Part shown: positions 2,643-54,968 of the stretch, one piece after another | How positions within the stretch are numbered: the stretch's first letter is position 1 | How the letters are laid out: the number at the start of each line of letters is the position of its first letter | Assembly (NCBI GenBank): GCA_051294905.1 | Contig: CM119386.1 | Location: 20,584,001 to 20,648,000 of the forward strand | Direction of reading: 5' to 3' | DNA length: 64,000 nt | DNA from: Botryllus schlosseri | Lineage: Eukaryota | Notes under the pieces: model-generated | Databases searched by the model: none | What the model was told of the DNA's origin: nothing | The model's input: only the letters and a program-made list of their open reading frames with translations | Made by a program: the position numbers and the translations under genes

Positions 2643-4781
2643 CCGGGAATAAACTCCGCGGGGGCGTTGATGAGACCGTTGGCGAACAGTTCACCTTCGA
2701 TATCGTTGGCAAAGGTATTCTCTAGGTGTTGCGGCAGACCCTTCTTTGCTTTACCTGCAGAATTAGCATCATTAAGTAAGGATCAGTATGACAATACTGA
2801 GTGCGTGAGTGATCCGGTTATGAAGAGAGAATTAGGCTTCGAATCGAGTACTTAACTATCACATATGATGGCGTCGCCACAGTCCCAACGATGCAGAAAG
2901 CTCAAGTATGTACCTTTTATGCGACCTCAAAGAATACAATGGCAGTTCTACATCACATTAAAGATGATTTGGTAAATGACCAACGAATTTTGAAATCGGT
3001 GGATAAAATAATACGTCCAATATCTGCAAAGGTGACAAAAGTGGACAGGCGTCGTGCGTAATCTGAAGGTCGGAGATGTAGTTTGTATATCAAAAGAAAA
3101 TCGTATCCACGGAAACTTGGCGGAGTCGAATCCGTATAATCTCCAGAAAATGGGTTGGTCTGAAAAGCCAGGATACTCGAGGGATGAACAGACTCTATAA
3201 CTATCGGAAAGCCCACATGGAAAGGTCAATACACAAACTCATATCACTAGTTGCAGCAGACTCTCAGTCGGTTAAAACATAACGGTATAGTCGTTCTATT
3301 GAAACGTATTAAGTGTTGCGTTTACTTGGTATGGTGATAGTGGATGAATATTTTGTTAATTATGTATGCTTATCGTACGTATACGTGTCCATAGTAGTAG
3401 TTGGTGGTGTTGTTGTTGTCTGTGGATATGCATGGTGTTTGTCGACTACAATGGTCATTTACACCAGGCCAATATTAATCTTTTTTTTCGTAGCTGCCGA
3501 CTTGTAGCACGGCCCGCTTCTAAGCTTTAATAAGACGCTGCTTACACAGATGTCCATAGTTCCTAATATCCATGTATTTGTGGGTCGATCCCTGACACTG
3601 GGAGCCATTGTTATGTTCATTCGCTTACAAAACCACAATTATTTCGAATTGCATTTTCGTGGAAGCCATGTTATTGCAGGAATCTGCAGGAATATTTAAA
3701 TTTCAATTATAGGCGTCGCGGGATTCGTCTTTTATGTATGTCGATTGGACGTCCCACTTCAATGCAGTCTGGTTTGATGTTGGCGCGATGTTAGTTGCGA
3801 TGTGTCGACAGTCGGCAACAACGACCACGTTCGGGTCGCATGGGAGTAACAGCGACTAAAGTATGATTGCGACTGAAGTATGATTGCGAGAGAGATTTGT
3901 TTGTTTGATATTCATGGTCTGTCGACTACACTGTAAATCTAAAAGGTGGAAAAAATGGTAGGAAAATGGAGAAAGATACTTTCCCTCCATTTATCCACCG
4001 TATCTCCACCAGATATGGAGGAATTTAGAGGGTAGAAAGAGGGAGGAATCAATAGTCTACCATATTTGGTGGAAAACAATTATTGACATGGTGGAAATCA
4101 GAAATGACTGTTCGCAAACTGTCGTATTGCCCAATTAAAACATGACAGTCGATACTGGCTTATAGTTAATAACGTCATCAGACATGAATTTCGAGTCGAG
4201 TGTTGTTTTTTCACTCAATATAAAGTCATAGTCGCATACATTTTGGAATATTGGTAAAATAATTAATATTTCATTTACAAGTGGTTAAGTCAGTAGAGGG
4301 ATTAGTAAATTTGAAAATATCTGAATACTATTAATGGATTGTGATGATTATTTGGAGATCCTGCACGACCGTAGCATATCCAAAACCTTTAACGTATATT
4401 CTTATTGCCAATATCCTCACCAATGAACCGTGACCGGCGGTAATTCAGCATCCGGGACTCTGGCAATTTTGAATGCACGGGGAATCGGGGATATGCGCTC
4501 TCCGTCGTCAGTCAATCTGAGTTAGTCGGTCGACAGAGAAAGATATTTATATTCATTGATTGTGAGTTGATCACAATATGATTATTGTTGATTTTAGTTC
4601 ATAAGTAGCCTAATGTGATTTGCTTAATCGATTTCATATCAAGTACCGGTATCGCTTGTGACTAAAAATCCGGAACTAGTGCACTATACACCAACAATAC
4701 CCGTTCATGGTGATCACTTTATTGACTAAGTATTTTTACACGTCAACCTTTTTCTTTTATAATTCTCTCGAATTTCCATTT

Positions 4782-4980
4782 CATGACTCAGCAGATTTCC
4801 AGTTACGAGGTTTCATTTTTTTCCGTTTACGCCCATTACGTTAAATAATACAGTTAACACCTATTATAAACGATGCACTGCCTTTCATTTATGCTTCTTT
4901 ACATAACTAACTTACCATGACTTAGCATATTTCTAGTTACGAGGTTTCAGTTTTTTCCGTTTATGCCCATTACGTAAAAT
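4782..4980 (-). promoter_or_regulatory. Two ~134-bp-period direct repeats, enhancer-like, downstream of env2 of element A
   Basis: CATGACT(C/T)AGCA...AGTTACGAGGTTTCA...TTCCGTTTA(C/T)GCCCATTACG at ~4782 and ~4916; AP-1-like TGACTCA 4784-4790; minus-strand TATAAAA near 4755-4761 and AATAAA at 4718-4723. Confidence 0.5.
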
Positions 4981-5154
4981 ACTTCACTTGAAACCAATCA
5001 CAAACTATGCATCGCCGGGGTTATTTTTATATTCCCGATGCCTATCACAAGTTTACTTAAGAATTTCCCAAAGTTATAAAATTGCATCTCATACTCCCCT
5101 ATCCTAACTACATAACGAACTTACACCTAACTTCAAGAATCAATTCTCTTACCT

Positions 5155-8100
5155 TCAAATCTCGTTATCCTCTGCTGTGTTTCGTATTACCCTTATCGCC
5201 ATCCATTGACTTGTTCCGTTACGCCTCCTCGTGTTCCTCAGATGACTTAGGGTTCTACGCCGACGACATCTTATACAACCAACCCACAACACAATCACCA
5301 GAGCTATCAACCCTGTTACCACCAATATTACAACCACTGGTTCCATGATAGGTATCAGTTTCGCACCTTCCATAATAATCCTATCGATCAAGGATAATTC
5401 TCTTACCTTATATCCACCTTCCATCATCACCAGTTCGTGCAGCCATCGAGTATAGTTGTAGTCAACGAAATCTGTGGTTGTCTTCCCCGCGGTGGTTCTT
5501 GATATTCGGGAATACTCAGGAGCGGGTGTTCCCAAACTTTGGTTTTTCTGCCCAGGCGGTGGTGACGCGTCAGTCATCGTTGACTCCAAGGTAGTATTCA
5601 TCAGTTCGACACTCCTCGGGGACGAGTCGTCTTTGTCGTCTCCTGTTGAATACAAAGCAGTTGTTCCGGTACTTACCTTACGGTTGTGGTCCGGGCTTTG
5701 GTAGTCCGTTCCGATGTCGGTTCCGTCATCATCTCTGGAGTCCTGCAGCGCGTCTGCAGTGGTAATCGGATGCACTCGCGTTGTTGTGGACACCTCACCG
5801 CTGATTTTCGTCGTTCTTTCGGGTAGGTTACGTGGATTGGTTGGCAACTGTTGCTTCCAATGAGTCGAATAGGTTGGTTTGGCATTGTCATTTTCCCCCC
5901 TTTTTTTAGCCATCGATTGCGATCGCCAAGCTTGCACCAGCGTCGTTTTCATTCGCCATCCTAGAGTTAGAGATGGTAGGTGTCTCAGCGCTGTAGTCTT
6001 TGGTACTGTTGTTGTTAGCCGTTCAACGGTCACCAAATGTGCGACGTCGTCCTCCTGATCCCTTGGAATCTTGCTTGTTTCGGTATAGTTAGGTAGAGGG
6101 CTAGTCGGTATATAGGCAGTTCTATTCGCCTCAGGTGCAGTATTCCCGTCTACATCTCGATCGGAGGAAACCTGGTAGGGAACCGTAGTTCCTGCAAAAC
6201 CGGGCCAATCAGTCTCTTCTAACCTTTGGTCGGTTATTTTCGTTGGCGTGGTGGTCTCGTGAGTCATTTCTCTAGTTATTCTCGCCTCTACCGATTTCCT
6301 TTGTTTCGTCAGTTCTTTTCCCCGTTTCGTGATTACCTGGTGCGTGGGCGGGTACCTTGATAACGACATCTCTTCAGTGGCGGTCGTTACTCCTTCCCAA
6401 GTCAGATGCGGCGTCGGGAGACTGTTTGCTGGTTTCTCTTGCTCACTTGGTGTTACCCCATGTCCATTTTCCCAAGCTTCCATGGTCGTACTACCCACCA
6501 TCATCGAAGTAGTTTGCGGAACTTCGGTGGTCCATGTGGTCCTAACGCGATGGTTTCCACGGTCATCATTTGCGGTTAACATCACCGTTCGAGCGGTGTA
6601 TCTCTCCCCCGCATTATTTCTATGGGCATATGGCGTATAGACCAGGGCACCATCACAAAACGTCCCCCGATAGATCCATCGAGGCTGAAATAACTTTTCG
6701 CTCCCCACTTCTGCCTGAATCAGTTTTTGTGAGGCCATATACTTCAGAAGTATCGTATTCATTGATTTTGCTTGTTCTATTAATGTCGGTCGCAGAGTAA
6801 GGTTATACCTCATGGATAGCTCCTCAAGTTGTCCCCGTGAGACGGGTCTTTCTCGCCGCGTTTCTACGTCTTCTCTTATCCGGGCCTTTAGTTGCGACTG
6901 GCATTTATTTATTTCTTCCACGTAGTGTGCCCCAAGGCGGGATAGCCAGTTTCTAATGCCTCCTCGTCCATGTTCTTCGGGTGTCCCTCGAGACGGGGAT
7001 AGTATAAACGTTTCCCACCCTTTTGAAATCAAGCAGGAACTTTGGTTACCCATGGTTGGTAAAAGTATTTCCGTCCGCGTTCGGTTTTCAGGGGCAGCAA
7101 TTTGCATTGCACCTTGCCGAGGGTCCGCAAACACGGCCTGCCCCTCGAAAGGGTCGAATAATACTCTATTGAATAGTAAGGCTGTTTTGAGATCTCCAAC
7201 AGCCGTTGAACAAACTTGTCTATTTTCCTTTAGTCCGCACCGCGATCTATTATGCAAAAGAACTGGGTAAGAGTCATACATTGCCATGCCTGAAGGTTGG
7301 GGTCTTGCCATCGTGCGTAGGAATGCCGTATCGGTTTTTCGTCCGTCGAACATCACATGCCAATGTTCCGAATATGTCTCGTTCCTTGCTTGTAGCCATA
7401 CCAGATTCTCGCTTATCTTCGGCAGAGGAGCTCTGTCGGGCCATTGATTGCTAGAAAAGGTTCTCCGCTTATCCGGCGGGTTCCCAATAATACCGGGATC
7501 GACTTCCTGTATTACAAAATCTAGGGGCAAGAAATTCTCAACCGGTTGCTCCCCCATGAAGTAGCACTCTATACACATCACTCTACTTCGACGTTTTTTA
7601 TGAGCAACACAATGGCTGAATCTATTCTGTCCGATATCCCATCCTATATGACGCCCGAACTGATAGCGACAATTTGCTTCCACTGTTCCATATTGCTCCA
7701 ACAAGTTTATGATCATTGTCTTATATACGGTTAATCGTTGTAATGTCTCGAGGGGTAGAGAATGCAAGGCTCGGGTTTCTACGTACCTCCAGAGATGTAT
7801 CACTCCCAGTCTGCCGTTGCGTCGGTACTTTATTTTTTGAGTATAGTAGTCCGCAGGGTTCAGATCCGGTGATATCCACGACTCAGTCCTTCTGCACACA
7901 CACTCCCGTTCATACGCCCAGGTTTCGTTCCAATACCTGGCGTTTTGGGATCCTATGGATGATATGGGTGCCAGTAATTTGTATAAACTTTGCGGTGCGG
8001 CTTTCAACGGACCAAACGCCGAGTCGTCAACCTGTATCTGATAGTGACGTTGAATGTCCCTTCGAGGCCAGTCCCCTCCTAACATAAAAAGCCGTGACAA

Positions 8101-8298
8101 GGGAACTCTTTGCGGCTTTGGTGGGACGTCGAAAGGTATCCATCCCGTAAAATTAAAGTCGTCGACGGACCCCACGGTCATGGCAGATAAGGGTAGTAGG
8201 TTTTCGCCAGTTTGGGTTTTCACAAAACAAGCCCACAGGATTAACAGCAGCAATCTTTGTAGTCCTTTCCATTTGTACAGGTAGTTAATTATTGGCAT
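5155..8298 (-). CDS. Second envelope glycoprotein (type I membrane; Env-SU-like N-terminal domain, Thr/Ser-rich mucin-like stalk, C-terminal TM), 1047 aa
   Basis: Signal-like N-terminus (RLLLLILWACFV), Cys-containing ectodomain, Thr-rich region, TM VVVILVVTGLIALVIVLWVGCI, basic tail; homologue at 54969-59432. Confidence 0.85.
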   Translation of the reverse strand: MPIINYLYKWKGLQRLLLLILWACFVKTQTGENLLPLSAMTVGSVDDFNFTGWIPFDVPPKPQRVPLSRLFMLGGDWPRRDIQRHYQIQVDDSAFGPLKAAPQSLYKLLAPISSIGSQNARYWNETWAYERECVCRRTESWISPDLNPADYYTQKIKYRRNGRLGVIHLWRYVETRALHSLPLETLQRLTVYKTMIINLLEQYGTVEANCRYQFGRHIGWDIGQNRFSHCVAHKKRRSRVMCIECYFMGEQPVENFLPLDFVIQEVDPGIIGNPPDKRRTFSSNQWPDRAPLPKISENLVWLQARNETYSEHWHVMFDGRKTDTAFLRTMARPQPSGMAMYDSYPVLLHNRSRCGLKENRQVCSTAVGDLKTALLFNRVLFDPFEGQAVFADPRQGAMQIAAPENRTRTEILLPTMGNQSSCLISKGWETFILSPSRGTPEEHGRGGIRNWLSRLGAHYVEEINKCQSQLKARIREDVETRRERPVSRGQLEELSMRYNLTLRPTLIEQAKSMNTILLKYMASQKLIQAEVGSEKLFQPRWIYRGTFCDGALVYTPYAHRNNAGERYTARTVMLTANDDRGNHRVRTTWTTEVPQTTSMMVGSTTMEAWENGHGVTPSEQEKPANSLPTPHLTWEGVTTATEEMSLSRYPPTHQVITKRGKELTKQRKSVEARITREMTHETTTPTKITDQRLEETDWPGFAGTTVPYQVSSDRDVDGNTAPEANRTAYIPTSPLPNYTETSKIPRDQEDDVAHLVTVERLTTTVPKTTALRHLPSLTLGWRMKTTLVQAWRSQSMAKKRGENDNAKPTYSTHWKQQLPTNPRNLPERTTKISGEVSTTTRVHPITTADALQDSRDDDGTDIGTDYQSPDHNRKVSTGTTALYSTGDDKDDSSPRSVELMNTTLESTMTDASPPPGQKNQSLGTPAPEYSRISRTTAGKTTTDFVDYNYTRWLHELVMMEGGYKVRELSLIDRIIMEGAKLIPIMEPVVVILVVTGLIALVIVLWVGCIRCRRRRTLSHLRNTRRRNGTSQWMAIRVIRNTAEDNEI

Positions 8299-8380
8299 AT
8301 TAATTTAACGTGAAAATCTGTAATTCATATAGTTGTGTTTAGTTAAGCATGAGGGTTAAGAGAGCTTCGTCGGAGATTGG

Positions 8381-10966
8381 TTACCGTCGCACTATGGGCC
8401 TGGGCTTTACGGTGTAAGATGGTGTCGACGTTATATACATTGCAAGTTGGGCGTTAGTGTTCCGCCTTTGTACGCTAGATTTTAACTTGGGACAACATAG
8501 GCTGTGGTACCTGACACAACAGAATAAGATAATCACCGCACCCAGTACAAGTCCCAAGGGGAGGAGGATGGATCCGAGGCCCGAGAAAATGCCACTCAGC
8601 CCACTTCCAAATAGACCTCCAATTGCCCCGAGTCCCTTTTGTAGGAGGTTACCGGCACCGTTTCCGACCGATTCTATCAGACTTCCGGCACCGTTCGCCA
8701 TCTCTTCTATCGTTTTGCCAAAGTTCTTCATAAATTCTTCCCCCCCCCCAGCAAACTCGAAGGGGGCTACTGACACATTCTCGTAGCGCCAATCGGAGAT
8801 ATTTACGAACACACTTCGGTTCAGGTCTTCCTTCCATACCTGTATACTGAGATCCACTTCTTCTTGAGCCTGGTTCAGACGAAGCCTGTTGGCTCGGAGT
8901 TTACCACTGATGTCGTTTGTCTCATTCACATACGTATCTTTATAGGCAGATAACTGCTGAGCATGCTCCTGCACCCGCAATGTCCCTTTCCGAATCTGTG
9001 TAAGATAGACCTTACTCGAATCGAATATGGACTTTCCAGTCAAATTAGCCAATTCTTTCATGACCAAGCGGTCGACGGCAAGTTCAGCGTCGCTCACCTC
9101 TGTGAAACTTTGAAACTGAGCGAGGGTGATGGTAGCCTGCCGCAATATCATTTGTCGGTTTTTCTCCATCATCTTTTGCATCCACACCAGTCGTCTGTCC
9201 GTCAGTGATGCCCTCACCTCCATGTCTTCAACCAATCGGTCCAGCTTTTGTTGCTGCGCCGTTTGAATTCGAGAGAGTTCGTTTATCTTTCTTCCCAGCT
9301 CGACTGATCTTTCCGTAGCCTGGATCATTCTATCGTTGATTTGATTACTCAGGTTCTCTGTTTCTTTATGCAGTTGGGAGGATACAGTTGCGACAACAGC
9401 GACGACTGACACAACGGCAAAGATTAGTGCCAGTAGGCCGAAGAGGAATCGTTTACGTCTACGTTTCCTCCCAATCCTCCTATTATTGCGCGCGATATCT
9501 CCTTTTATTTCTATAGGACCTCCCGGAAAACGGGGTCGGTTATGCTCAGGGTCGAAGTGTACCTGATCCCAAAAGGCCGCCTTCAACTGAGGCCCCCCGA
9601 CCGGATCCTGACAGTCGCTACCACTTACCCGTTTCTGACACCTAGGATCATCTGCAACCAAAGAGGGGTGCTTTCGCCAAACAGGCAGTATGTCGTAGGG
9701 TGCGACTGGTCTTTCGGCAGGTCCGTCGAACAAATTATCCCAACCAAGCCCTTGGTCATCTTGACCCTTCCAGTTCGGTAAGGACGCCTGTATCCATCTA
9801 ATCCTTCGAGGAAAATTCGTGGTGGGCAAGTCCCCCCACTTACTCTTGTTCTGAGTCGGCCAAAGATTACACGATGGAGGATGCGCGATGTTGCGTAGGC
9901 CCTTACCGGATAAGGTTGGTGAGTGATGGACGACCTGCCAACGGTGTTCATAGTTTTCCTGGGTGATCAGTCCTGACGTAGCTCGGCAGTTCTGCATAGG
10001 ATGCCACTTACGTTCCCATGCGGATTCCGCACGAATGGTATCTATTTCTTGTATTATTATGTCTGCTTGGCTCGGTTCTAAAGCAGAAATTATCCCTGTG
10101 ATATCACAAAAAACACAGGTGCCGCGTGAACCTGGCCTTGACGACACCAGGCGTTTGTCTGACGTGCGAGTCTTCCAGTCGTAGGTTATTGAATATGTTC
10201 CGGCCCAAAGCACGTTACTCGGCCAACAATGCGCAATGCTCGAGCTACTGGCGTTATATTTATTCCATCGATCAACCCGAGTCCAGTTCCAGGTATCTTT
10301 TGTCATGCGCTCTGTCCTGCAAGTCGATCTCACCGCTGAGAACCCCGCGAATGCTCGTAACATGATCAACTTGAATTTGGTCATTGCCATTAAGGTATCG
10401 TTCACATGAGACCACTCGTCCACTTCAGCCCCAGCCTTCCATTTCTGCCTAGACGTTTCCCAGGTCTCGTCCCAAAACCACCGTATCCTGACCCCATGCC
10501 CTATTGGGCGTACGAACACAGTTTCTTGGTCAAGAACGGCAAAGGTTAGGTTCGGCGAAATTTCGCTTAGTTTTCGTTGGCATAGGCAGGTTCGTTCAAA
10601 ATCCCGTACATTCGACCAATATCGCCCTCGCGGGAACGCCATTTGCTGCAATGACACCCGTTCGGCCACCACGTAACCGAAAGATTCACTATGAAAGAGT
10701 GTTGGTCGCCTGTACACGTGACGATTCCCTGTCTTATTGAAAGCGCTCATTAGGTCGTAGGTTTCCCATTGCGTATCATTCAGCCGAACCCAGTCGTCAG
10801 GTAGTGAGCCGTTGAATTCACCCAGGGTACCCTGAGTAAAGGTTCGGGCCCTGTTTGCTACAGTATCTCCGGATCTTGGCACGAAGTCCGCCGCCTCAGA
10901 CAACAAGCAATCAGATGTGCAACTGAAACCAATAATGACAGGCAGAATATAAATAGCGTAGTCCAT
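8381..10966 (-). CDS. env: Envelope fusion glycoprotein, class I-like (SU / furin site / fusion peptide / heptad repeats / TM), ~861 aa
   Basis: True ATG at 10966 (MDYAIYIL aligns with MDHAAYIL of element C; the track start at 10993 is TTG). Signal peptide, N-glycan sequons, RKRRRKR|FLFGLLALIFAVV, long heptad region, Gly-rich membrane-proximal segment, TM, Cys-rich tail. Confidence 0.9.
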   Translation of the reverse strand: MDYAIYILPVIIGFSCTSDCLLSEAADFVPRSGDTVANRARTFTQGTLGEFNGSLPDDWVRLNDTQWETYDLMSAFNKTGNRHVYRRPTLFHSESFGYVVAERVSLQQMAFPRGRYWSNVRDFERTCLCQRKLSEISPNLTFAVLDQETVFVRPIGHGVRIRWFWDETWETSRQKWKAGAEVDEWSHVNDTLMAMTKFKLIMLRAFAGFSAVRSTCRTERMTKDTWNWTRVDRWNKYNASSSSIAHCWPSNVLWAGTYSITYDWKTRTSDKRLVSSRPGSRGTCVFCDITGIISALEPSQADIIIQEIDTIRAESAWERKWHPMQNCRATSGLITQENYEHRWQVVHHSPTLSGKGLRNIAHPPSCNLWPTQNKSKWGDLPTTNFPRRIRWIQASLPNWKGQDDQGLGWDNLFDGPAERPVAPYDILPVWRKHPSLVADDPRCQKRVSGSDCQDPVGGPQLKAAFWDQVHFDPEHNRPRFPGGPIEIKGDIARNNRRIGRKRRRKRFLFGLLALIFAVVSVVAVVATVSSQLHKETENLSNQINDRMIQATERSVELGRKINELSRIQTAQQQKLDRLVEDMEVRASLTDRRLVWMQKMMEKNRQMILRQATITLAQFQSFTEVSDAELAVDRLVMKELANLTGKSIFDSSKVYLTQIRKGTLRVQEHAQQLSAYKDTYVNETNDISGKLRANRLRLNQAQEEVDLSIQVWKEDLNRSVFVNISDWRYENVSVAPFEFAGGGEEFMKNFGKTIEEMANGAGSLIESVGNGAGNLLQKGLGAIGGLFGSGLSGIFSGLGSILLPLGLVLGAVIILFCCVRYHSLCCPKLKSSVQRRNTNAQLAMYITSTPSYTVKPRPIVRR

Positions 10967-11112
10967 TGAGGTGGTATAGGCGTCGGTCCCCAATGCATAG
11001 GCTTACTATTTTATATTGAATATGATTTAATTATTGTCTGCAAAAATAGAAACATACATTGTCCGGTTTGTGGCTAACTTCCTTTCTTTATTGCGAAAGG
11101 CTTCACTGGGCT

Positions 11113-12074
11113 TTACTGAGGATTACCTTGTGTGTCAGGAATCTGATCACTAGGGTCGTCATTATTATACCGCGGGTCCAGAGATATCGTTTTCAACAGA
11201 GCCCCAAACCTTTTTTTACGGGGGTATCTTCTCTTCCAAAGCCACTCCCCCACATAATCGGCTAGTAAATGACGTGCTAGACCCCTCGATCTGTGTAAAT
11301 GATATTTCAGCGAGCTCCAGCAAGCCTCTAAATCATTGGTATGAACGCCCTGGGCAGATTTAAACGTGGTGGCGTGGTCAACTGATCCATGTTTATAGCC
11401 CTGCCCCCAACTTTCAATGCCCTTATACGATGGATAGCCATCTGTCAGAATGGTTGAACCTCTGGCTACATTCTTAATTATAAGTCTTTTCAGAACGTCC
11501 GCTGTTCGGTCAGATGTGATCTCCACAAACATGTCACCGGTACCTCGGTCCAGGCCACCGAAAGCCCAGACAGCCTTCACTGCTTGTTGACCGCTACCAG
11601 CTGCCCGTTTCCGCTTGGCCAAGTGGGTTTCGTCCAGGATTACAGTTCGGCCAACCCCGCCTAATTTCCGTTTACGTCTTTGTATGTAAGCAGAGCACAT
11701 CTTGCGCAGTTGTCCAGACCATTCTACCGTCGTACGTGCGCTGATCTCGGCCTCATGGGCCATTTGAATTTGTAGAGAGTCTTGGGCCCAAAAATAACTT
11801 AATACTAGCAGCTGGGGCAATCCAAGTTTGCTCTTTGAAAAAAATGAGTACTTGCGGATAGTAGCAGTGGTCCTACAAGATGAGCACCTCCATCTCCATC
11901 CGTCCGAAATTCTCTCGGTAGTCCGTTCTTCCTTCATCCATCTTGAGCATTCTCTGCAAATCATTTGTTTTCTCAGTAGACCCCGGCTTCTTAAAAAAGG
12001 GATGCAATCGCGTGTATGGGGTAAGGCTCCCATTTCCACCAATCGCAGCACATTGTAATCCTCGACGAAGGAGT
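11113..12074 (-). CDS. Merlin/IS1595 (ISXO2-like) DDE transposase, probably expressed from a spliced mRNA
   Basis: Zinc ribbon CREC...WRWRCSSC; catalytic motifs VILDETH, ILTDGYPSY, VDH, HTNDLEACWSSLK. ORF-track start 12099 is TTG inside a polypyrimidine tract ending CAG at 12077-12075. Confidence 0.9.
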
Positions 12075-12161
12075 CTGAAAAGTAAATAAAAAAGTACAAG
12101 TTCCTTTAACGATCGATCACTCCCCAGCAGTTAAATCTCGACGGCAGCGTCACCCTGCATC

Positions 12162-15100
12162 CTAGGCCAGGTTCTCCATCAGTATATACCCTGACGGTAT
12201 TGGCCCTTCGCACAGTATTACCTCGTGATTATGCGACTGTAAGAGTCGTAGACCTATCCTTCTGAGGTCGTTCGCCCTCATTCTCAGAACCGTTCTACGC
12301 CCACGTGCCTTTGTTGTGTTAATCTTACTCAAATGGATGAACCGTCGGTTCATTCTGTGTAGTTGGGTATCAATGATTTGACGGGCACCTTCGTCCGTCG
12401 TTGTGTGATACAGCATGTCATCGCCTAGGTACTCTTCGTATGGGGGTGGCATCCCTTTGGTGTGCCCGTGCGCTGCAGCCAGGCCTTCACCGGACATCAC
12501 TGCCCTGTCGCAATTGGCCATGATATCCTCAATTTCAGTTATCCCGAGGTCTTGTCGCAACTTGTCTTTGATTATTCCGCGAACTTCTTCCCAGGGGTGG
12601 TATCCATCGACAGAGTTTGCGCAATACTCGTGCCGACAGTGGAACATCAGGGTTCGCTGTATTTTCTCTTGTTGAAATTCTTTGTGTCCCGGGAGGGTGG
12701 CCCAGACATGAGGGTCATCATCTCTAGCAGCCATTTCCATCCAATAGGATCGGGACAATCCATCTGAAGTAAACACTTGGAACGTGCTCAAATGGATTAC
12801 CTCTTTTATCTGGAATCCGGAGAGATGATTTAGCCACCTTTGAATCAATGGCTTTGGGCTCGGGTTTTTTGCCTCATCTGTCATTCTTTTCAGGAGTCCA
12901 AAAACTCCCATGTTGTCAGTAATTATAGTGAAGGGTAAGGCGCGCAGCATCGACTGCCATTTCTCCACTGAATCCTTCAGGGCTTTAAGCTCTTTGGTGC
13001 ATGGGTCATAGGCTTTCGCCGTCGGAGTTACCCACTTTTGACTGTAGTAAGCGATCGGATACACCTCTTTGAAAGGGGGTTTTTCCCCCACATCCGTTTG
13101 AAAAATTACGGAGCCAAACCCTACATCTGATGCGTCAGTTTCCACAAAAATGGGAAGTCCTGGATCCAGATGATACAGTACCTTGGCACTGTCGAGTGCA
13201 GCTTGAGCTGTTTTGTAGTCCTGCAATAATTCTTCGGTCCAAAGCACCGGTGTCATTTTACCTCGAGTCGCTGGGACTTTTCCCGTTAGCGCATCAAATT
13301 TTGCCAACTTCAAGCTTAACTCTGGGATGTGCTCCGAGATGTAGCGCAGAGCGCCAATCCATCCTCGTAATTCGTATATATTTCGGGGTGGCGAAAGCTC
13401 CCGCAGAGCCCTTATTCTCTCAGGCTGGACCTCGATTTCTTTTCCCGTCAAGGTCGCTCCTAGGAGATTTGCCCTCCGTTTTCCAATAAAGCATTTATTG
13501 ATGCTGAGCGTCAATTTCATTTTAGCAAGCTGTTCAAATACCAACCGTAGGAGAAGCAAATGGTCGTCTACCGTTTTTGTGCTAAGGAAAATGTCGTCTA
13601 TGTAGGCCTCCATAGGCGTCGCATTCTCCTCATCCGATCGGCCATTTTGCTTCATGCGTTGGCGATACTTTTCCGTGATGGGTTTCACCGCGCATTCTTG
13701 CATGTTAGCGCTCCAAAGGGCAACTGCGGTCTTCAATCCCATCACAATCTTGCGCCATCTTACGTGCATTCCTTTGATGGCTATTCCCACATATTGCTTG
13801 GATCTTTCCGTGATATCCATGTGGAAATAGGCTTTCTTCAAATCCAGCAGGGAGAGCACTTCTCTTCCCTGGGCGAGTTGTTTTACATCTGGTACTAAGG
13901 GTGGAGGGACTTCGATTGACTTTATAGCAGCGTTCAGGGGCTGGAGATTCTGTACGACTCTCCATGATTGCTTCCACCCGTCCTCCTGCTTCTGTCTTTC
14001 ATTCATTTTTTGTGGGACGACAAAGATGGCCAGTTTCCATTCGGCAAATCCTTGCTCAATTATTCCCAGGTCCAAGAAGTTGTCCACTGCTTCTTTTAAC
14101 GCCTTCGCCTGGCCCTCCCCTTTCAGATTATAAGGTCCAGAAACAAAAGGCTTAGTCGAGGGATCCCTGAGTTCTATGTCACACTTATACTTCATGGCTT
14201 GAGGGGCTCGTAAGTGGCCACGCAGGTCCTCTAGTTCAGCTGCGAAAGGCTCATAGACGGCTTTCCAAACTTCGTCGGCAATGATGGTATTTTCCGGGGT
14301 CGTTAGATCAGGAGGTTTGTATGGAAGTTTCGCTAGTGCTACCGATTGTGCACAGAGACTTTCGAGATCCGTCTTAACGCTAAGACTGGTACCTTGTTGT
14401 AAGGTGTACGTGGTAACAGGGCCAATTATCGGCCGATGCGAATCACGTGAAAAACGGGGTTTTGGTGTTGGTGGAGAGGGGGCGAGGTTCTTCGTTGTCA
14501 GCGGGGATTCCCTACCTATCCAATCTGACCTCTGAACTCGGTGCGTGCCCACACCTACCGTCACGCCGACGGACTCAATCTCCGCCGGGGGCCCTGTTTC
14601 TGGGGAGACGTGCATCTTAAAATCCCCAGACTCCTTGTCGGACGCGCCTGGACCTACGTCCGGTTGACCGACAATAGCTGCTTCGTTTGAACCTTTTGGG
14701 AAGTTACTCATAACTGTGGCTGTCGTCCTGCATCTTTGGGCCGAATTATTACAGTTATTCGGGCAAGTGCATCCACGAGAGCTTTCAGGACCAGTTTTCT
14801 CGTGCAGGTCCTTATTTACGTCAGCCGGGATTCCGCGCTCGACGTCTTCATTAATAGTGCCAGCAGGGATTCCTGTCTCGACACTAGGGGTTTCCCGTAG
14901 GTTTCTCTCGACGTTAGTGGTATTTACCAACCCGTCGTCCGCGCCAGTGGCGATTGCCATCTCGACACTTGCGTCAGCGGCGACGGCCGGCAATAATGAC
15001 CGGCGCGCCGACTCGACGCTTATCTGATTTGCAGCTTCCATCAACCCATCGTCGGTAGCAGCGTTGCAAGGACTGTTTCCGACTCTGGTTCCATCCCGTC

Positions 15101-15632
15101 GATCGCACGAGATCTCGTCATGTAGTGTTACTAAAGACAACTCTTCGTTTGCATTAGACGGAGTTTTGAATTCAGTCGTTATGTTCGGTAATTGTTGTAC
15201 CTGATCAATCCATTTTAACCCAATAATATTGAGAGGGACTCCTTTCCCGGTTGCAAATGGAACCGGTAGTCCATCGAAATCAATTATTACCAAGGAGTCA
15301 ACGTGGGAAGAGCCCCCTATGCCGCGTAATTTCATGTCTAGGGGTTGTCGCTCCTCCCAGCTTCGTGGGTATTTGGTCTTAACAACACTTTTCATTATTA
15401 AATTGGGGATGCTTCCCGTGTCGGCCAAGAATTTAGTTTCCGTTGTGGTGTCAACCAAATACAAGAGCCGACCGCCGAATAATTCCGTAAAGTCTGGCTG
15501 TAGTGGGTTATCCGGTGTATCAAGAAATGTAAATAGGGGTAGAGAAGCATTATGTACAGTTTTTGCGTGTTGGGGTAATAAGTTATCTGGGAGCTGATTT
15601 ACCGGATCAATCAGCACCCCCAGTCGTTTTTT
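12162..15632 (-). CDS. pol: Pol: aspartic protease, spacer, reverse transcriptase, RNase H, C-terminal Tpt1/KptA-like domain; no integrase
   Basis: FLADTGS protease motif; RT WRVVQNLQPLN, LLDLKKAYF, YIDD; Ty3/gypsy-type RNase H VETDASDVG...KELKAL...TDN...DGLSR; final ~167 aa match Tpt1 motifs; no HHCC or DD35E integrase. Entered by -1 frameshift from gag. Confidence 0.93.
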   Translation of the reverse strand, partial: KKRLGVLIDPVNQLPDNLLPQHAKTVHNASLPLFTFLDTPDNPLQPDFTELFGGRLLYLVDTTTETKFLADTGSIPNLIMKSVVKTKYPRSWEERQPLDMKLRGIGGSSHVDSLVIIDFDGLPVPFATGKGVPLNIIGLKWIDQVQQLPNITTEFKTPSNANEELSLVTLHDEISCDRRDGTRVGNSPCNAATDDGLMEAANQISVESARRSLLPAVAADASVEMAIATGADDGLVNTTNVERNLRETPSVETGIPAGTINEDVERGIPADVNKDLHEKTGPESSRGCTCPNNCNNSAQRCRTTATVMSNFPKGSNEAAIVGQPDVGPGASDKESGDFKMHVSPETGPPAEIESVGVTVGVGTHRVQRSDWIGRESPLTTKNLAPSPPTPKPRFSRDSHRPIIGPVTTYTLQQGTSLSVKTDLESLCAQSVALAKLPYKPPDLTTPENTIIADEVWKAVYEPFAAELEDLRGHLRAPQAMKYKCDIELRDPSTKPFVSGPYNLKGEGQAKALKEAVDNFLDLGIIEQGFAEWKLAIFVVPQKMNERQKQEDGWKQSWRVVQNLQPLNAAIKSIEVPPPLVPDVKQLAQGREVLSLLDLKKAYFHMDITERSKQYVGIAIKGMHVRWRKIVMGLKTAVALWSANMQECAVKPITEKYRQRMKQNGRSDEENATPMEAYIDDIFLSTKTVDDHLLLLRLVFEQLAKMKLTLSINKCFIGKRRANLLGATLTGKEIEVQPERIRALRELSPPRNIYELRGWIGALRYISEHIPELSLKLAKFDALTGKVPATRGKMTPVLWTEELLQDYKTAQAALDSAKVLYHLDPGLPIFVETDASDVGFGSVIFQTDVGEKPPFKEVYPIAYYSQKWVTPTAKAYDPCTKELKALKDSVEKWQSMLRALPFTIITDNMGVFGLLKRMTDEAKNPSPKPLIQRWLNHLSGFQIKEVIHLSTFQVFTSDGLSRSYWMEMAARDDDPHVWATLPGHKEFQQEKIQRTLMFHCRHEYCANSVDGYHPWEEVRGIIKDKLRQDLGITEIEDIMANCDRAVMSGEGLAAAHGHTKGMPPPYEEYLGDDMLYHTTTDEGARQIIDTQLHRMNRRFIHLSKINTTKARGRRTVLRMRANDLRRIGLRLLQSHNHEVILCEGPIPSGYILMENLA

Positions 15633-18484
15633 GAGAGTCTCAAGCCTTGTTCTAGTTCCTCATCCGTCCAATGCGAGGCGTCATAGCGACGTGGAGGACG
15701 GCGATATAGCGGTTCCGTCCAGGCCACTTGGCTATTGCCCTGGTTCGGTTGTTCAGGTGGGCCCTGAGGACCCCACTGATCCCTATCATGCCAGTGGGTT
15801 CTATCTCTATTTTTTGGCCTAGAGTCATAATAGGCCTCGCACAAGGCAGTTCTCTGTGTCAGAGAGGGAGAACCTTGGGTGGCAAGGTATCGGTCGAGGT
15901 CCGGGACCGTCAATATGTTATTCCTTGCAAGGAAAGGCTCCCAGTTGCGTTTTGTGGACTCCTTAACGCGTGGGGGTACCGGTCGTATTCGTTTGCGAAC
16001 TACCCAACCTAAGGTATCATCCTTGGCAATCACCTCCTCATTTAGCCAAAGCACGAATTTTGCCACGCAATTACGGGATTGGTGTCCCGGGGCCTTACAA
16101 TAATAACATACGGATAAGGACTGCCCCTGAGGGGGGTTCAGATACAAGCCTAGAGGGGCGAAAATGTTGGGGTTCCCAAGAAAATTATACCTCTCACCTT
16201 GGCTCTCCGCGATGCGGAGGGCTTCCTGACTGCTAGACGGCGTGATTTCCTGGCTGTCCCCGCCGATTCCAGAGTCCTGCGTATTCATCACCCGAGGTCT
16301 CCGGTTCGAAGTACTTGGCCCCTGACTTGTTTGAGGAGATCTGGAGTTCCGTGCTGGTGGAACGCTCGGTCCATTCGATGCGTTGCGCCCATTTTGTGTT
16401 CGGGAAGGTTTGGCCCTGGTAGCCGGGCCCTGTCTGCCAAATCCATTTCCACTCATTACATTGGTAGGAAAACGGTTGGTCTTTGCGCCGCGAGGAGGGC
16501 CACGTCGTGGCTGCGAAGCTTGCCCGACGCCGACGGGCTGCCGTGGCGACATATTCCCCGTCGGTCTGGGTGGTGTCCCCCCGATCATGTGCAGAGGTTG
16601 TTGGGGTGAGGGTGGTTGCACCATCGGAAGTGGTGGTGTAGTCGGTGGAGGAGGGGTGTTTATTCGTTCATCTCCACCCCCGTGAGTAGGGTAACTGTGC
16701 ATCATGGGTCCTGCAGGCTGAACATTATATATGTGTACAGGCGGTAGGGGCGACATTGCTTCACGCGTCTTTCTGGCCTCCCGAGTGGTGGGTCGTACCT
16801 CTTGTTCATCCAAGAACTCAGAATTCCAGTACAGCTGCAAATCCTCTGCCACCTCTTGCCAGGACCTGCTATCCCATCCCCGCATCAGCAGTCTAAGTGC
16901 TTCTGGTAATCGTTGTCTTAGGTTGCGGAAAAGTCGCAGCCCATCCGGATTCTCGTTGATTTCCGCCTCCATATCTATCTCTAGTTGCTTTAGGGCGCTA
17001 TTCAACAGCGGAAGAGGTTCGTCTTCCCACTGATAATTCCTCCGGAAGTCGTTGATGACTTTTTCATTGTTAACCAAGCCTTGCGGGTTGGATAGCGACA
17101 ATGATTTCATGACCGAAACCCATTTTGCATTTCCCGAGTTGGTGTTGAAGAAATTCCCTAGCTGATTAGCTTGTTTGAGGCGACCCGCACTTCTCAACTT
17201 CTTCTGCATGGCATTAGCCAGGATGATATCAGTATCAGTGCCGCCCTCACCGTGTCGTATACGCCTCATCGTATTAGCCATCCACTTTAGAAGTGGCATG
17301 TCCCCAGGGTCCATCATTAGCTGTAGCATCTCCTTTTCGGACTGGAACCTTTCGGGCGTAGTCAACACCGGGTTTACGGCATCATTCCGTGGTTGTTCTC
17401 GCGGAAGTCTCGATCTACCTTCGCTTTCTCTTGGGGTAGATGTGTATCGAGGTAATCTGAGGTATTCAGCGATGTCCGAAATATCCTCTGCGGGTTCGCT
17501 TGGGTTGGGCCGACCAGAGTCCCGTTGAAGCGTCCGCGTGGTTTCCCGAATGGCCTCCCGTGCCTCCGCTATTTGTCTACCCAATCTGTCCAATTGGGCG
17601 TCAGTATCTTCCCCCGAGTCTTCAGGCTCTTCGCTTTCGCCTTGTCGGTAGTTCGTTCTCCCTTCCTGAAAGGTAACGCGCCTTGTTGGAGTGCTGGCCG
17701 CACCTTGTGTCCTGGTCCGGGTTCCTTCGGCTGCTCGTTGATCGTCGAGCCATGCGCCGAGCCGTTCTCGAGCGTGTGCATAGTCCTCGTCTGAATCTGG
17801 TCCAGTGTCTGTTCCGGTTCCACTCAGCTGAAATAGACTGGGTGTATCGACTAGGCTCCCCCTTCGTCTTTCGGGGCGTGTCCCATTCCAAACTGGAAAG
17901 CATGGAGTCGTTTTTGGATGAGAATCTGATGGCGACTTCGGCTTGGAACCTGGCAACGTAGGGTAGACTGTCGTTACGGTATGGCAATCCAGGCCCTTTT
18001 GGACTGTAAACGTGGGCAGTGGCGCTGTTGCCCTGGACGATTTCCCAACGGGCGGATCATACGCCGGGGGAGGTGCTGTAGCCATTACGGACAGGGGAGA
18101 AGGTGGTGGTGGTTTACTTTCAACCACTTGGGCATGGGCTTTGCCCAGTTCAAATTCCGATTTCAGAATCTCACTGAGGACTTCAGTGGAGACTTTCCCG
18201 CTAACCTTCGAAGTTGCATCGCATACTGCTTTGAGGTCGGCTTGAGCTCGCCTGACTTCTTTCTTGGCTTTTTCCAGCCCCTTCATTGTCTCGGGCAGAG
18301 TTGATTTGACTTCTTTTAGTACCTTCGTTTGATCAGCCACGTCTTTTGCCAACTGTCTTTCTTGTTGTCTGACGCCTTCGTGGCGTTTTTGCGTGGCTTT
18401 CAGTAGCTTGATGCCCTGCTCGAGCTCGCCTGCCGCCTTTGACGACTTATTCTTCTTTTTAAATAATTTTAGCATTTTTCGCAT
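15611..18484 (-). CDS. gag: Gag polyprotein, 957 aa
   Basis: Upstream of and overlapping pol; basic N-terminus, coiled coil, PPAY and YPTL late-domain-like motifs, single CCHC knuckle CYYCKAPGHQSRNC. Confidence 0.9.
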   Translation of the reverse strand: MRKMLKLFKKKNKSSKAAGELEQGIKLLKATQKRHEGVRQQERQLAKDVADQTKVLKEVKSTLPETMKGLEKAKKEVRRAQADLKAVCDATSKVSGKVSTEVLSEILKSEFELGKAHAQVVESKPPPPSPLSVMATAPPPAYDPPVGKSSRATAPLPTFTVQKGLDCHTVTTVYPTLPGSKPKSPSDSHPKTTPCFPVWNGTRPERRRGSLVDTPSLFQLSGTGTDTGPDSDEDYAHARERLGAWLDDQRAAEGTRTRTQGAASTPTRRVTFQEGRTNYRQGESEEPEDSGEDTDAQLDRLGRQIAEAREAIRETTRTLQRDSGRPNPSEPAEDISDIAEYLRLPRYTSTPRESEGRSRLPREQPRNDAVNPVLTTPERFQSEKEMLQLMMDPGDMPLLKWMANTMRRIRHGEGGTDTDIILANAMQKKLRSAGRLKQANQLGNFFNTNSGNAKWVSVMKSLSLSNPQGLVNNEKVINDFRRNYQWEDEPLPLLNSALKQLEIDMEAEINENPDGLRLFRNLRQRLPEALRLLMRGWDSRSWQEVAEDLQLYWNSEFLDEQEVRPTTREARKTREAMSPLPPVHIYNVQPAGPMMHSYPTHGGGDERINTPPPPTTPPLPMVQPPSPQQPLHMIGGTPPRPTGNMSPRQPVGVGQASQPRRGPPRGAKTNRFPTNVMSGNGFGRQGPATRAKPSRTQNGRNASNGPSVPPARNSRSPQTSQGPSTSNRRPRVMNTQDSGIGGDSQEITPSSSQEALRIAESQGERYNFLGNPNIFAPLGLYLNPPQGQSLSVCYYCKAPGHQSRNCVAKFVLWLNEEVIAKDDTLGWVVRKRIRPVPPRVKESTKRNWEPFLARNNILTVPDLDRYLATQGSPSLTQRTALCEAYYDSRPKNRDRTHWHDRDQWGPQGPPEQPNQGNSQVAWTEPLYRRPPRRYDASHWTDEELEQGLRLSKNDWGC
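15626..15632 (-). promoter_or_regulatory. -1 ribosomal frameshift heptamer A AAA AAC
   Basis: X XXY YYZ heptamer in the gag frame five codons before the gag stop; pol is in the -1 frame; identical heptamer at 50408-50414 in element B. Confidence 0.85.
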
Positions 18485-18528: not shown

Positions 18529-18864
18529 TTATTGGCTAGGGGAAGTACCGTTACGAAGTAGATTACCCACGGTCGCGGTTTTGTTGTTTTCGATCACTCG
18601 CCCTTGCGTTGTAGGTGCGGAATACCTTCCGAAGATAACTGGGTCGGTCTCGTTGGCGATTGCCACAGCAAATCCGTTACGTGGGACAGTAAGTGCTTCG
18701 GCCGTTGTAGTGACGTCGTTAGAGAGACCTTCAGGGTTTGTAGTAGGAAAGAATACCGGCACGAGGTGTACGTAGACCGACGCCAACGTTATTAGCAGAG
18801 ATATAGCAGAAGTGATTACTGTCACTCCGAGCACGATTCTCACGAGGGTCGTCTTCGCGCACAT
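18529..18864 (-). CDS. Small leader ORF, putative type II membrane glycoprotein, 111 aa
   Basis: ATG start just downstream of the PBS; hydrophobic anchor at aa ~7-39; sequons NET, NKT, NGT; stops 45 nt before the gag ATG. Confidence 0.6.
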   Translation of the reverse strand: MCAKTTLVRIVLGVTVITSAISLLITLASVYVHLVPVFFPTTNPEGLSNDVTTTAEALTVPRNGFAVAIANETDPVIFGRYSAPTTQGRVIENNKTATVGNLLRNGTSPSQ

Positions 18865-19128: not shown

Positions 19129-19305
19129 CGTGTAATTAAGCCTTAATACAACCAAATACTCCAATAAATATCATGCAGACAGAATGAGGTATCTAAGCAA
19201 AACTCGGTTAAATTGGCACATAGAATATCCATCAATTATAACACAAGATAAAGCTTAAACCTATTCATATTCATGCACGATTAAATGTATTTTAAATACT
19301 CCAAG

Positions 19306-45848: not shown

Positions 45849-47190
45849 AGTGACGGGCCAGATTACTTTGGTACGTTCTAAACTCGGCTGTAAGTCGTTA
45901 GGTTAACTTTACTGCATCTCTTTGTTGCCGTATGGCCACGATTATGAAATTTGACTCTTTGTAACTTCCTGAAATCGCATCGCGCATCAAGCTTCGAATA
46001 TTCACTCTATCGGGCCATATTTAAAATGTTGCCGCAGTTCGCTGAATATAGCCGCGGCGTCGAATTCATATTTCGATTCAATCAAAATGGCCGACGAATT
46101 ATTCTTCTGTCAATTTATGGTTGTTTCTAGCAATTATCCTTGTTACACGTACACCACATTAATACCCTCAAGTTCAGATTACTCTACACTACAATTCTAC
46201 CTTTTTCTTTACTCTTACACGTCAAATTTTGGTGGTATTAAGTTCATTTGTTCCGTATAAGTTCAAATAAACTTCAATAAAATATATGCCTCGTCATAAC
46301 ACACTTCTTTTACAACCATTCTCTCGAATTTCATACAGTGTTCACCGTGTAACAGAGGGTATTAAATGCACTTGTACCAAAAATACAATGAACTTGTCAT
46401 AAGCAGTTACCAGTAACCTACCTATGAGAGATGAGAATGATGCATCTGATGACCCGATATTGTTTTTCTGCTGATATCTTGCTTGGTGGGAAGGTAATTC
46501 AAGTAAGCCAACTGGTGATTATAATGAAAGGAATTAGGTGGAAAGAGTACATTTTCATATTCATGCATGACATAGATAGAGCTATTGTTGGGTACCGGTA
46601 TTCAAACTGGTTCTGTATTTAGTTTTACCATTATGCAGTAGCTGCATATTTATAATTTGGATTTTCATTGTTTGAATGAAAGGAACTCTTCTGATATCTT
46701 TCCGGCGTCACATTTTTTGTAAATGTGAGAATTGACTATGAATATATTCGGGACTAATGCACGATGCAACGTAACTCGTAGAAATGTAAGGCCAAGGACA
46801 TAGGAGTATGTGCATTTTCCGCCCGCATATCTGTTGTCATGGTGCACACTATAGCCTATGACGACAGTGTCATACAAATGATCGCATGATCGAAGCACCA
46901 CATGATTCATATTTCCGATTGTTAATTACAGGCCTTATGGGTATTCTTTCCGGTGATCTTCCCGCTAGTTTAGAGAAACGATCCACCGAATATTAGCCTT
47001 TTGGGATTACGTCAATTTTCATTCTTCAAATCTGAAATATGTTGCTAACAGATAACTATATTATTACACCCGCCTTTAAACCAATTAAACTGTAGCCTGG
47101 TCTATAATGACAAAAACCCACGGCTTTGTCTAGCGATTATTCACTTTATTAATTCTCAGACCGTTTTATACTATGTAATGTCACCTTATT

Positions 47191-50100: not shown

Positions 50101-50414
50101 CCTTGTAAATTCATACGCAACGAACACCGCCTTCGCCAACTATTGGGATAAGCTAATCTCGCCATTGACGACATCATCAAATTTGGCACGCTTCCTGTAT
50201 CTGCTAAAAAATTTACATTAGTATTTATATCGACTAGGTACATCAATTCACCCCCAAAAAGCTTTGCGAAATTACATTCATCAGAATCTTTAATTTCCCC
50301 AAACATACTAAATAACGGTAATGACAAATTATTTATTATTCTCATAGTTCTATGTGGTAATAGTTCGTCTGCACACTGGTTCAAAAAATGACCCAGTGTA
50401 GCTAACCGTTTTTT
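47191..50414 (-). pseudogene. pol: Element B pol (PR-RT-RH-Tpt1-like) with a 1-nt frameshift near 49022-49030
   Basis: Collinear with element A Pol: FLADTGS, WRVVQNLQPLN, YIDD, VETDASDVG, HCRH...LFHIT...MNRRYIHF; WTQ(aa)WRVV lacks one base relative to WKQSWRVV. Confidence 0.9.
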
Positions 50415-50960
50415 GACAAATTCACCCCAGTTTTCAATTCAGAAGCCTACCAATGAGGAAAGGGCCGTTGCTGATCATTTGGAGGATAAACCACAGGATT
50501 AGCACTAGCCATTGGCGCCTCAATATTTGGCGGTTCAAAAATTGGTCTATTTCGCCAATTTAATGGATCACGGCGTTTGGGGCGCTTGTCAAAATATAAT
50601 TCGCATAACCGCGCTCTCTCTTGCAAACTGGGGGACCCTTGATCGGCGAAATATTGGTTTAAATCTTGGATTGTCATTAGCTTTCTGCGCTCCGGGTTTT
50701 CACCTCGGAGGAAAGATTCCCACTTAGATTTTACTTCTTCAAACAATGGACTTGGAAGTGGTTTCAAACGAGGGCGGACAATCCATTCACCCTCCTCATC
50801 TTTAGTAAGTACCAGTTGGTTAATCCAGAGAATTACTCGACATAAGCACTGTCTAACAGAATGGCCGACGCTTTTACATAAGTAGCACACCATTAACTTC
50901 AGGCCATTAGAAGGATGCGTATACAATCCAAGCTTTTCAAAGATGTTTGGGTACAAGTGA
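50400..50960 (-). pseudogene. gag: Element B gag 3' fragment, 5'-truncated, with premature TAG at 50447-50449
   Basis: PNIFEKLGLY...CYLCKSVGHSVRQC...QGSPSLQERARLCELYFD aligns with element A Gag C-terminus; HW*ASELKTGVNLSKNG aligns with HWTDEELEQGLRLSKND. Confidence 0.85.
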
Positions 50961-51235
50961 AGTAAACGCCGTAGACTTACACGGCACCTGTGTGAAACAT
51001 GAAAACATCGGCGTGTGCAGTGTTTTACCAGTAAATGAACAATGCTGTACTTGAACATCGAAAATATGGGCATTAGATTCACTAGGTCTCATATGGAACA
51101 AGTGAATTAAACACCCTGACCTACCTATAGCACGGGGACAAATAAGAGAGAATTGATTAGTGAAGCGCGGCCGAGAAAAAGGCGGTTCCTCGCAAACCTA
51201 CGACCCACGAACACCGTATCATTCCACTTCTGCAG

Positions 51236-52176: not shown

Positions 52177-52295
52177 TCGCGACCCATGACCTATCATAAA
52201 GAGACGTTTTGTTTGTGTTTTTCAGACAATAAACCGAACACTTTCGTAAATAATACCTAGCTTATGCAGTGGGCTGAGCCTCCTATTCCGCCCCA

Positions 52296-54884: not shown

Positions 54885-54968
54885 TCAACTGCCTCCCAGG
54901 ACACCAGACTTCGACTCGGACTGACATTTGAACTTTTATGTACGACAGATTACTAGCTTAGACTAAAA

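Follow-up and report, generated by a model that had tools for sequence, protein, structure and literature searches.

In retroviruses and in the Oikopleura element Tor3a, spliced env RNA is the rule, and the donor of Tor3a is placed near the start of gag (PMC4402516). RNA of the C. elegans element Cer1 is described as cis-spliced to a product sharing the N-terminus of Gag and as trans-spliced to a host leader, with splice sites conserved among relatives (PMC3315495). Trans-splicing has also been noted in a colonial ascidian (PMC3691228). Here we describe a 64,000-nucleotide stretch of the Botryllus schlosseri genome (assembly GCA_051294905.1, contig CM119386.1, positions 20,584,001 to 20,648,000 of the forward strand; "the window" below), which holds element A on the minus strand and the first part of a related element, C, on the plus strand. 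Both combine gag, pol and two env genes (env1 and env2) with a Merlin-type transposase, and splice acceptors stand ahead of the transposase, env1 and env2.

In the reading that we prefer, to which we assign a probability of roughly 0.55 for all its parts together, the transposase would be made by cis-splicing from a donor in gag, the two env genes would be expressed by trans-splicing of the host leader, and in C- and D-type copies the RNA would be templated by a joined-end form.

Acceptor of the transposase exon

A sequence-only reading of the window had proposed three splice acceptors at homologous positions in A and C. All six lie where it placed them and carry the letters it quoted, with exons starting at 12074, 11037 and 8317 in A (minus strand) and at 51236, 52226 and 54949 in C (plus strand). 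Their conservation extends beyond A and C. The features around the transposase acceptor are as follows.

12075..12092, minus strand: pyrimidine tract and CAG acceptor of the A transposase exon (exon from 12074, phase 1)
11113..12074, minus strand: IS1595/Merlin-type transposase exon of A, 319 codons, N-terminal segment without a conserved start (PF12762, E 3e-13)
50950..51235, plus strand: 5' terminal inverted repeat and 286-base terminal segment of C, with the transposase acceptor at its end
51236..52176, plus strand: transposase exon of C

As had been claimed, the transposase sites of A and C are both in phase 1 and stand the same distance, five whole codons, before the YNVLRLVE motif. The genome (495 Mb) gave 125 transposase matches out of 198 candidates; acceptors were compared in one representative per subfamily, and 30 loci were fetched for the CAG spacing. 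The CAG is found 17 bases ahead of the Tyr codon of YNV in all 30 loci fetched and in all nine subfamily representatives parsed, and it is in phase 1 in nine of ten subfamilies. Two loci have the acceptor shifted by 3 bases with the phase kept. The tenth subfamily (C15/B-type, 3 loci), which the transposase tree excludes, has its own ATG and no phase-1 acceptor site. Ahead of the CAG, four positions of the tract are pyrimidines in 9/9 representatives; among the 15 exon bases past it none is common to more than six of the nine, and the residues encoded across the site vary (S, T or A). Within 14.5 kb of A there are 18 instances of YAG behind a similar pyrimidine tract; the motif taken by itself is thus weak proof, and its conservation is the evidence. 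A YAG and tract conserved independently of the protein, the pattern of a 3' splice site, were found here, the env2 tract being weak. The transposase phase is fixed, whereas the spacing between acceptor and ATG at the env genes varies by single bases.

It had also been stated that the transposase open reading frames (ORFs) have no shared ATG upstream. This holds for the stretch before YNV, but a shared in-frame ATG lies 110 bases past the acceptor in 9/9 representatives, two codons ahead of the zinc finger. The 31 codons ahead of this shared Met show a ratio of nonsynonymous to synonymous differences (pN/pS) of 0.28 (8 subfamilies), indicating purifying selection; the 20 codons that precede the acceptor give 0.86, and the five linker codons 0.98. 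The segment ahead of the shared Met is covered by 56 of 57 free-standing transposase relatives. At the corresponding column of these proteins Met is the commonest residue (11/57), and the shared Met may therefore be structural. Across 11 loci the 5' terminal segment contained no conserved ATG with a phase-1 donor, and three C and C2 loci contained none at all; a mini-exon in this segment was tried as the transposase start and rejected for lack of conservation. A selected N-terminal segment, a fixed phase and no conserved start ahead of it suggest, by comparison of sequences, that the transposase frame needs an upstream coding exon.

Candidate splice donor in gag

The upstream exon could come from gag, which, with pol, precedes the transposase in A.

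15611..18484, minus strand: gag of A with zinc knuckle (PF00098, E 5e-4, just under the curated cut-off)
16192..16200, minus strand: predicted splice donor in gag of A, last exon base 16198, phase 1 past codon 762, 30 codons before the zinc knuckle
12162..15659, minus strand: pol of A (reverse transcriptase, RNase H and a C-terminal Tpt1/KptA-like stretch), overlapping gag in another frame

The sequence-only reading had suggested that a phase-1 donor, for example in gag or pol, might supply the transposase N-terminus. When 9.6 kb of leader, gag and pol were scanned, using general donor frequencies and not a model of host donors, the top score fell on a phase-1 site in gag, 16198, and the same site is found in A, C and D types. 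This donor was predicted before reads were mapped. It is identical in five of five other copies (two C, one D and two A). The Gly codon that it splits is GGT in all 10 subfamily representatives, down to 33-39% Gag identity, and of six other four-fold sites in invariant residues, taken as a control, none is invariant. Over 57 gag loci parsed (of 58), the donor Gly is GGT in 45 and GGG in 12, compared with 21 GGA, 19 GGG, 3 GGC and 3 GGT for a control Gly. All 12 exceptions are a silent change within a deletion-derived group, and the 11 placed on a tree form one clade; since three copies of this group keep the donor, its loss appears to be one event. The three copies of the group that were mapped have no reverse transcriptase, transposase or env1. 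We also observed that in this group (L132-L138, ~15 copies) gag plus a part of pol equal to its first 531 codons is fused to the env2 tail, the ends being kept.

The predicted joint 16198/12074 in A would link Gag residues 1-762 to the 319 transposase codons, omitting the zinc knuckle (at 793), with an intron of 4123 bases (16197-12075). A conserved donor, a matching phase and an open frame across the joint were all found. In C the matching gag donor is at C16:20655131 (window-equivalent 71131), about 20 kb downstream of the acceptor. Comparison thus supports well the idea of a gag donor for the transposase, and we consider it quite probable that cis-splicing joins Gag 1-762 to the transposase.

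Host spliced leader ahead of gag

19142..19165, minus strand: exact 24-base DNA copy of the host spliced leader in A, 658 bases ahead of the gag ATG
18529..18864, minus strand: 111-codon hydrophobic ORF of A between the leader copy and gag (no significant Pfam match)

These 24 bases equal the "Chordata 1" leader less its first G (PMC3795323, Table 1). The genome holds 236 exact copies, many of them ahead of gag and one heading a long interspersed nuclear element (LINE). Four read runs were mapped to A only, over the stretch 4400-24390. Reads starting at 19165 numbered 1681 of 2245 in run X13 and 4618 of 5339 in run X17, and they diverge from the element after ~24-35 bases into varied sequences. 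They are preceded by a constant tail, which we take to be a template-switch adapter. These leader reads come from host mRNAs and do not prove that the element is expressed, and the host does place one shared leader on many mRNAs.

The 6 bases before the leader copy diverge between close copies by 0.22-0.36 per site, vs. 0.04-0.10 for bases 21-120, in 4/4 groups (31 pairs; 3-7 times). Such variable bases fit an RNA 5' end and a reverse-transcriptase jump lying mid-element, which would give an RNA permuted relative to the DNA; retroelements that target the leader are another possible cause. The leader region folds no better than shuffled sequences (z 0.72), and Rfam gave no match on three leader loci. 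Several further observations concern leader copies. Their flanks vary (window 19142-19165, minus strand; L036, L049, L149), and some copies have partial duplications of the 3' half. Most element rows have a 4-pair hairpin with a variable loop 30-58 bases past the leader copy (window about 19085-19105, minus strand), perhaps a packaging or priming signal. A LINE inserted in A starts with a near-exact leader copy (window 26103-26125, plus strand), and its relative L126 has an exact one. In L124 and L125 leader copies are followed by a GTAAG donor; these may be host leader RNA genes or heads of short interspersed nuclear elements, and they have no Rfam match.

The leader bears on the transposase start as well. 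It has no ATG and has a stop in the transposase frame, so it cannot itself provide the missing start. All three acceptors might nevertheless take the host leader, with translation of the transposase from the +110 ATG or from a non-AUG start and with neither Gag fusion nor circle. Abundant host trans-splicing and an ATG shared by 9/9 representatives favor this scheme, as do a C8b group with an ATG directly past the acceptor and the C15/B group, whose own ATG has a phase-0 AG ahead of it. We nevertheless regard it as unlikely: it leaves unexplained the fixed phase, the selected 31 codons before the ATG, the presence of that segment in nearly all free-standing transposases and the invariant gag donor, the shared Met may be structural as noted, and the second transposase of some copies starts at an ATG of its own, without an acceptor. 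This second, more distant Merlin transposase lies upstream of gag (L055:5493-6443, L149, L035) and is absent from A of the window.

Acceptors of env1 and env2

11038..11053, minus strand: env1 acceptor of A (exon from 11037)
8381..10966, minus strand: env1 of A, fusion-protein-like glycoprotein
10858..10998, minus strand: 46-residue single-pass membrane ORF of A, opening at the first ATG past the env1 acceptor and overlapping the start of env1 in a different frame
8318..8333, minus strand: env2 acceptor of A (exon from 8317; ATG 8298), weak pyrimidine tract
5155..8298, minus strand: env2 of A, glycoprotein with a Thr/Ser-rich stalk, distant relative of env1
52210..52225, plus strand: env1 acceptor of C (exon from 52226)
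52264..52404, plus strand: 46-residue membrane ORF of C
52296..54884, plus strand: env1 of C
54933..54948, plus strand: env2 acceptor of C (exon from 54949; ATG 54969)
54969..59432, plus strand: env2 of C

At env1 the homologous CAG|A is the best-scoring site in 31 of 35 parsed loci (of 36); in three of the remaining loci the script picked another site, and one is interrupted. This acceptor lies 43 to 216 bases past the transposase stop, in non-coding spacer. At env2 a CAG|A is found 19-24 bases ahead of the ATG in six of nine subfamily loci, and three have only TAG, at 40-81 bases. The acceptor at 8317 in A is weak, with 6/12 pyrimidines, below the tract cut-off. Contigs of runs X1 and X2 skip 267 bases of env2 in frame between GT and AG (6540-6808), a skip seen in none of five other copies compared; as this could reflect splicing or else a deletion carried by a copy not sampled, it was not counted. 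The closest look-alikes of env1 in the Atlas are viral class I fusogens (0.88-0.90), with low recognition, which makes them a lead only.

The first frame past the env1 acceptor is that of a small membrane protein and not of Env, a point missed by the sequence-only reading. In all 10 subfamilies (two copies are shortened) a hydrophobic ORF of 44-47 residues opens at the first ATG, 36-40 bases past the acceptor, and env1 starts 32 bases after it (59 in one group) in a different frame. The small protein has a Pro-rich start, a hydrophobic stretch and a Cys and basic tail; it has no Pfam match and no Atlas match above 0.80. In the bicistronic vpu/env mRNA of HIV-1 a small membrane protein is likewise read first and overlaps the env start. 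The layouts are alike, and no likeness of sequence is claimed.

Gag-Env fusions from the gag donor were considered and rejected: joined to either env acceptor, the donor leads to stops within 1-10 codons. Retrovirus-like cis-spliced env mRNAs, as had been implied, are not supported, given this result, the lack of a strong conserved donor in the leader region (best 2.6 bits) and a host that trans-splices. As the host trans-splices and the element has a leader ahead of gag, leader addition is likelier than cis-splicing at env, and we think it reasonably likely that the env1 and env2 acceptors take the host leader by trans-splicing.

The opposing view is that every downstream gene has a cis-spliced subgenomic mRNA from an exon at the element's 5' end, e.g., with the leader copy as first exon. 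The retroviral and Tor3a precedents speak for it, 17 of 32 element-like rows have a GT right after the leader copy (some rows hold the same copy twice), and the 5' end would be identical whether the leader copy were cis-spliced or the leader trans-spliced. The other 15 rows have no GT, including A (GC) and one D copy (CT), and the leader offers no other strong conserved donor. We judge this view improbable.

Element ends and circular permutation

4672..4695, minus strand: 3' terminal inverted repeat of A
46355..46378, minus strand: 5' terminal inverted repeat of A
47191..51088, minus strand: element B, an older relative with broken gag-pol, whose gag holds the C insertion with its 8-base target duplication

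Element A spans 41.7 kb (46378 to 4672), LINE insertions included, and its flanking duplication matches at 7/8 bases; the target duplication is an exact 8 bases in the other four of five copies. C runs past the window, through accessory genes, gag and pol, to a 3' end at C16:20659611 and has an exact 8-base duplication. A gag-pol upstream of C, which the sequence-only reading had implied, was not borne out: the adjacent gag-pol is that of element B, which lies on the opposite strand and received the C insertion.

The cyclic gene order is constant. C and D types read end-transposase-env1-env2-accessory-gag-pol-end, and A and F types gag-pol-transposase-env1-env2; element C is a circular permutation of A. 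As both layouts keep the same cyclic order, it is the position of the ends that moves. Gene order in D (C14, 40 kb) and in most other mapped groups is as in C, and at least two lineages have the A order, namely A and F, of which F is sister to a C-order group (0.997). A search with 106 query ORFs found no remnants of transposase or env in the 22-kb stretch at the 5' side of A. Among C-type copies only 286 bases, beginning with the inverted repeat, are common ahead of the acceptor. The ends of C fall within the predicted intron, and the splice would need joined ends, i.e., a circle; in C the intron across them would measure ~4.77 kb, against ~4.69 kb in D. On balance we lean toward a joined-end template for the RNA of C and D types.

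The Gag fusion could also be real without a circle, C and D copies relying on splicing between two RNAs, on tandem or nested copies, or on enzyme from A-order copies. The presence of A-order copies in at least two lineages, able to splice when integrated, is in its favor. C- and D-type transposase frames are open and under selection, however, both splice sites are kept in these types, and the required tandems were unseen among the copies mapped. We therefore find this possibility distinctly unlikely.

As in long terminal repeat (LTR) retrotransposons, a gag with zinc knuckle (just below cut-off), reverse transcriptase and RNase H are present; a pol integrase and long direct terminal repeats are not, the ends being inverted repeats. 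Pfam found no integrase family in 13 proteins scanned. The DDE_Tnp_IS1595 domain, GG-ended inverted repeats and 8-9 base target duplication are those of Merlin/IS1595 elements, but there is no lone transposase gene between the ends. A metagenome scan for relatives found none.

Other features of the elements were observed. The terminal repeat recurs as an inner second copy 124-145 bases inward of the 5' end (window 51095, plus strand; 46254, minus strand). The pol C-terminus is Tpt1/KptA-like (PF01885; E 4e-5 in A, 1e-6 in B; window 12200-12660, minus strand) at the usual place of an integrase. Accessory ORFs lie between env2 and gag (L055-L056; window 61683-63555), some followed by AATAAA; two resemble, by eye only, an apoptosis inhibitor and a ubiquitin-conjugating enzyme. 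Tandem arrays occupy non-coding parts of the window at 19299-19521 (57 bases), 21254-21614 (77 bases), 59765-59999 (99 bases) and 60434-61028 (63 bases).

Reads, contigs and other evidence against the preferred reading

Several results weigh against the combined scheme of a gag cis-splice, leader trans-splicing and a joined-end template, in addition to the shared +110 ATG. The joint 16198/12074 is absent from the 15 joints listed of 34, and none of the 24 loose ends listed of 314 lies at the acceptors. Raw-read depth is zero from 6401 to 11736, i.e., over env and most of the transposase, in X13 and X17. Contigs of X1 and X2, two runs whose RNA nature is a guess, read through 11037 without a splice. 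From the leader copy to the 3' end of A there are nine AATAAA, one of them directly after the transposase. An RNA genome of 25-40 kb would be unusually long. No end-to-end junction was seen; two X2 contigs run from the 3' end into other sequence. No fused Gag-transposase protein was found among 2197 longer candidates in a weak search, and the two Gag relatives found are both unfused. The donor is also kept in copies that speak against its tight link to the transposase: 3 of 15 copies of the deletion-derived group retain it, up to 11 C13-like copies keep it in a group with only two whole transposases found, and GGT is present in the C15/B group, which has no phase-1 acceptor.

Retro-copied spliced forms were sought with D-type acceptor stretches, and none of 33 env1 matches or 36 transposase matches starts at the acceptor. 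That the sites are unused, transcripts being unspliced and conservation having another cause (protein coding, DNA binding), agrees with the unspliced contigs across 11037 and the absence of the predicted joints among those listed, but is very improbable given a CAG that is invariant in spacers of 43-216 bases and at silent positions, and every model would predict unspliced RNA or DNA.

Proposed expression route

Under the preferred reading, the three acceptors would be processing sites of one long RNA, made by a retrovirus-like element with inverted-repeat ends instead of LTRs and a Merlin-type transposase instead of an integrase. The RNA would begin at the leader copy ahead of gag. Cis-splicing from the gag donor to the transposase acceptor would drop the zinc knuckle and pol, and the enzyme could ride into particles on the capsid protein. 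For C and D types the RNA would come from a joined-end form, an excised or reverse-transcribed circle, with the end junction inside the ~4.7-kb intron, and the full fusion would be made only from the circle. The env1 and env2 mRNAs would be released from the long RNA by leader trans-splicing, in the manner of an operon, and on env1 mRNA the 46-residue membrane protein would be read first, Env following by leaky scanning.

We advance only tentatively the further idea of an enveloped reverse-transcribing sea-squirt virus of an undescribed kind. Its 25-40 kb RNA would be headed by the leader, which would serve as the short repeat for the reverse-transcriptase jump; the circle would have its junction inside the intron, and a packaged, spliced Gag-Merlin fusion would open the circle and insert it. 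Integration would then part donor from acceptor and turn the enzyme off.

A reverse-transcribing element that uses a cut-and-paste transposase must deliver the enzyme to its new DNA and keep resident copies uncut. If the scheme is right, one splice pair would solve both problems, as the enzyme would travel on Gag and in most copies be complete only with the ends joined. The scheme would further make this a virus-like element that expresses its genes in operon fashion through host leader trans-splicing.

Comparison with known systems

The element, with its proposed expression route, lacks defining features both of LTR elements and of plain Merlin transposons; the env acceptors alone would be ordinary. 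No description of the element or of a spliced Gag-transposase fusion was found in the literature searched, most subscription journals, Repbase and supplements being outside its coverage. DIRS elements, caulimoviruses and Teratorn offer partial likenesses: reverse transcription without a retroviral integrase, RNA permuted relative to DNA, and a virus with a DNA transposase. DIRS elements use a tyrosine recombinase, caulimoviruses have no active integration, and Teratorn combines a herpesvirus with piggyBac.

Retroviruses and env-carrying Ty3/gypsy elements, including Oikopleura Tor, share with our element the gag-pol-env layout and an acceptor ahead of env (PMC4402516; PMC13524379). The Botryllus element differs in that no integrase match and no leader donor were found, in having no LTRs and two env genes, and in a conserved donor deep in gag that fits the transposase frame only. 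A term search of PMC13524379 gave no mention of transposase or splicing. Kuafuorterviruses, compared by description, are likewise a neglected animal reverse-transcribing lineage, but their complete copies are reported to have two LTRs (PMC11673190). Cer1, which pairs cis-splicing to a Gag-sharing product with a host leader, has LTRs, an integrase in Pol and an 8-kb RNA reported not to be trans-spliced at the SL1 site, whereas here a transposase would be the splice partner and the leader forms a fixed part of the DNA (PMC3315495). Merlin/IS1595 elements are described with the same DDE_Tnp_IS1595 enzyme, GG-ended inverted repeats and 8-base target duplication (PMC8101967); the present elements differ from them in their 18-42 kb length with gag, pol and env, and in the loss of the transposase's own start in most groups. 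A functional analogy, with no homology claimed, is the copy-out/paste-in cycle of IS911 and IS256, in which the joined ends of a circle switch on the transposase (PMC7780238). There the junction forms a promoter (PMC7780238), whereas in the Botryllus element it would place a splice donor ahead of the acceptor.

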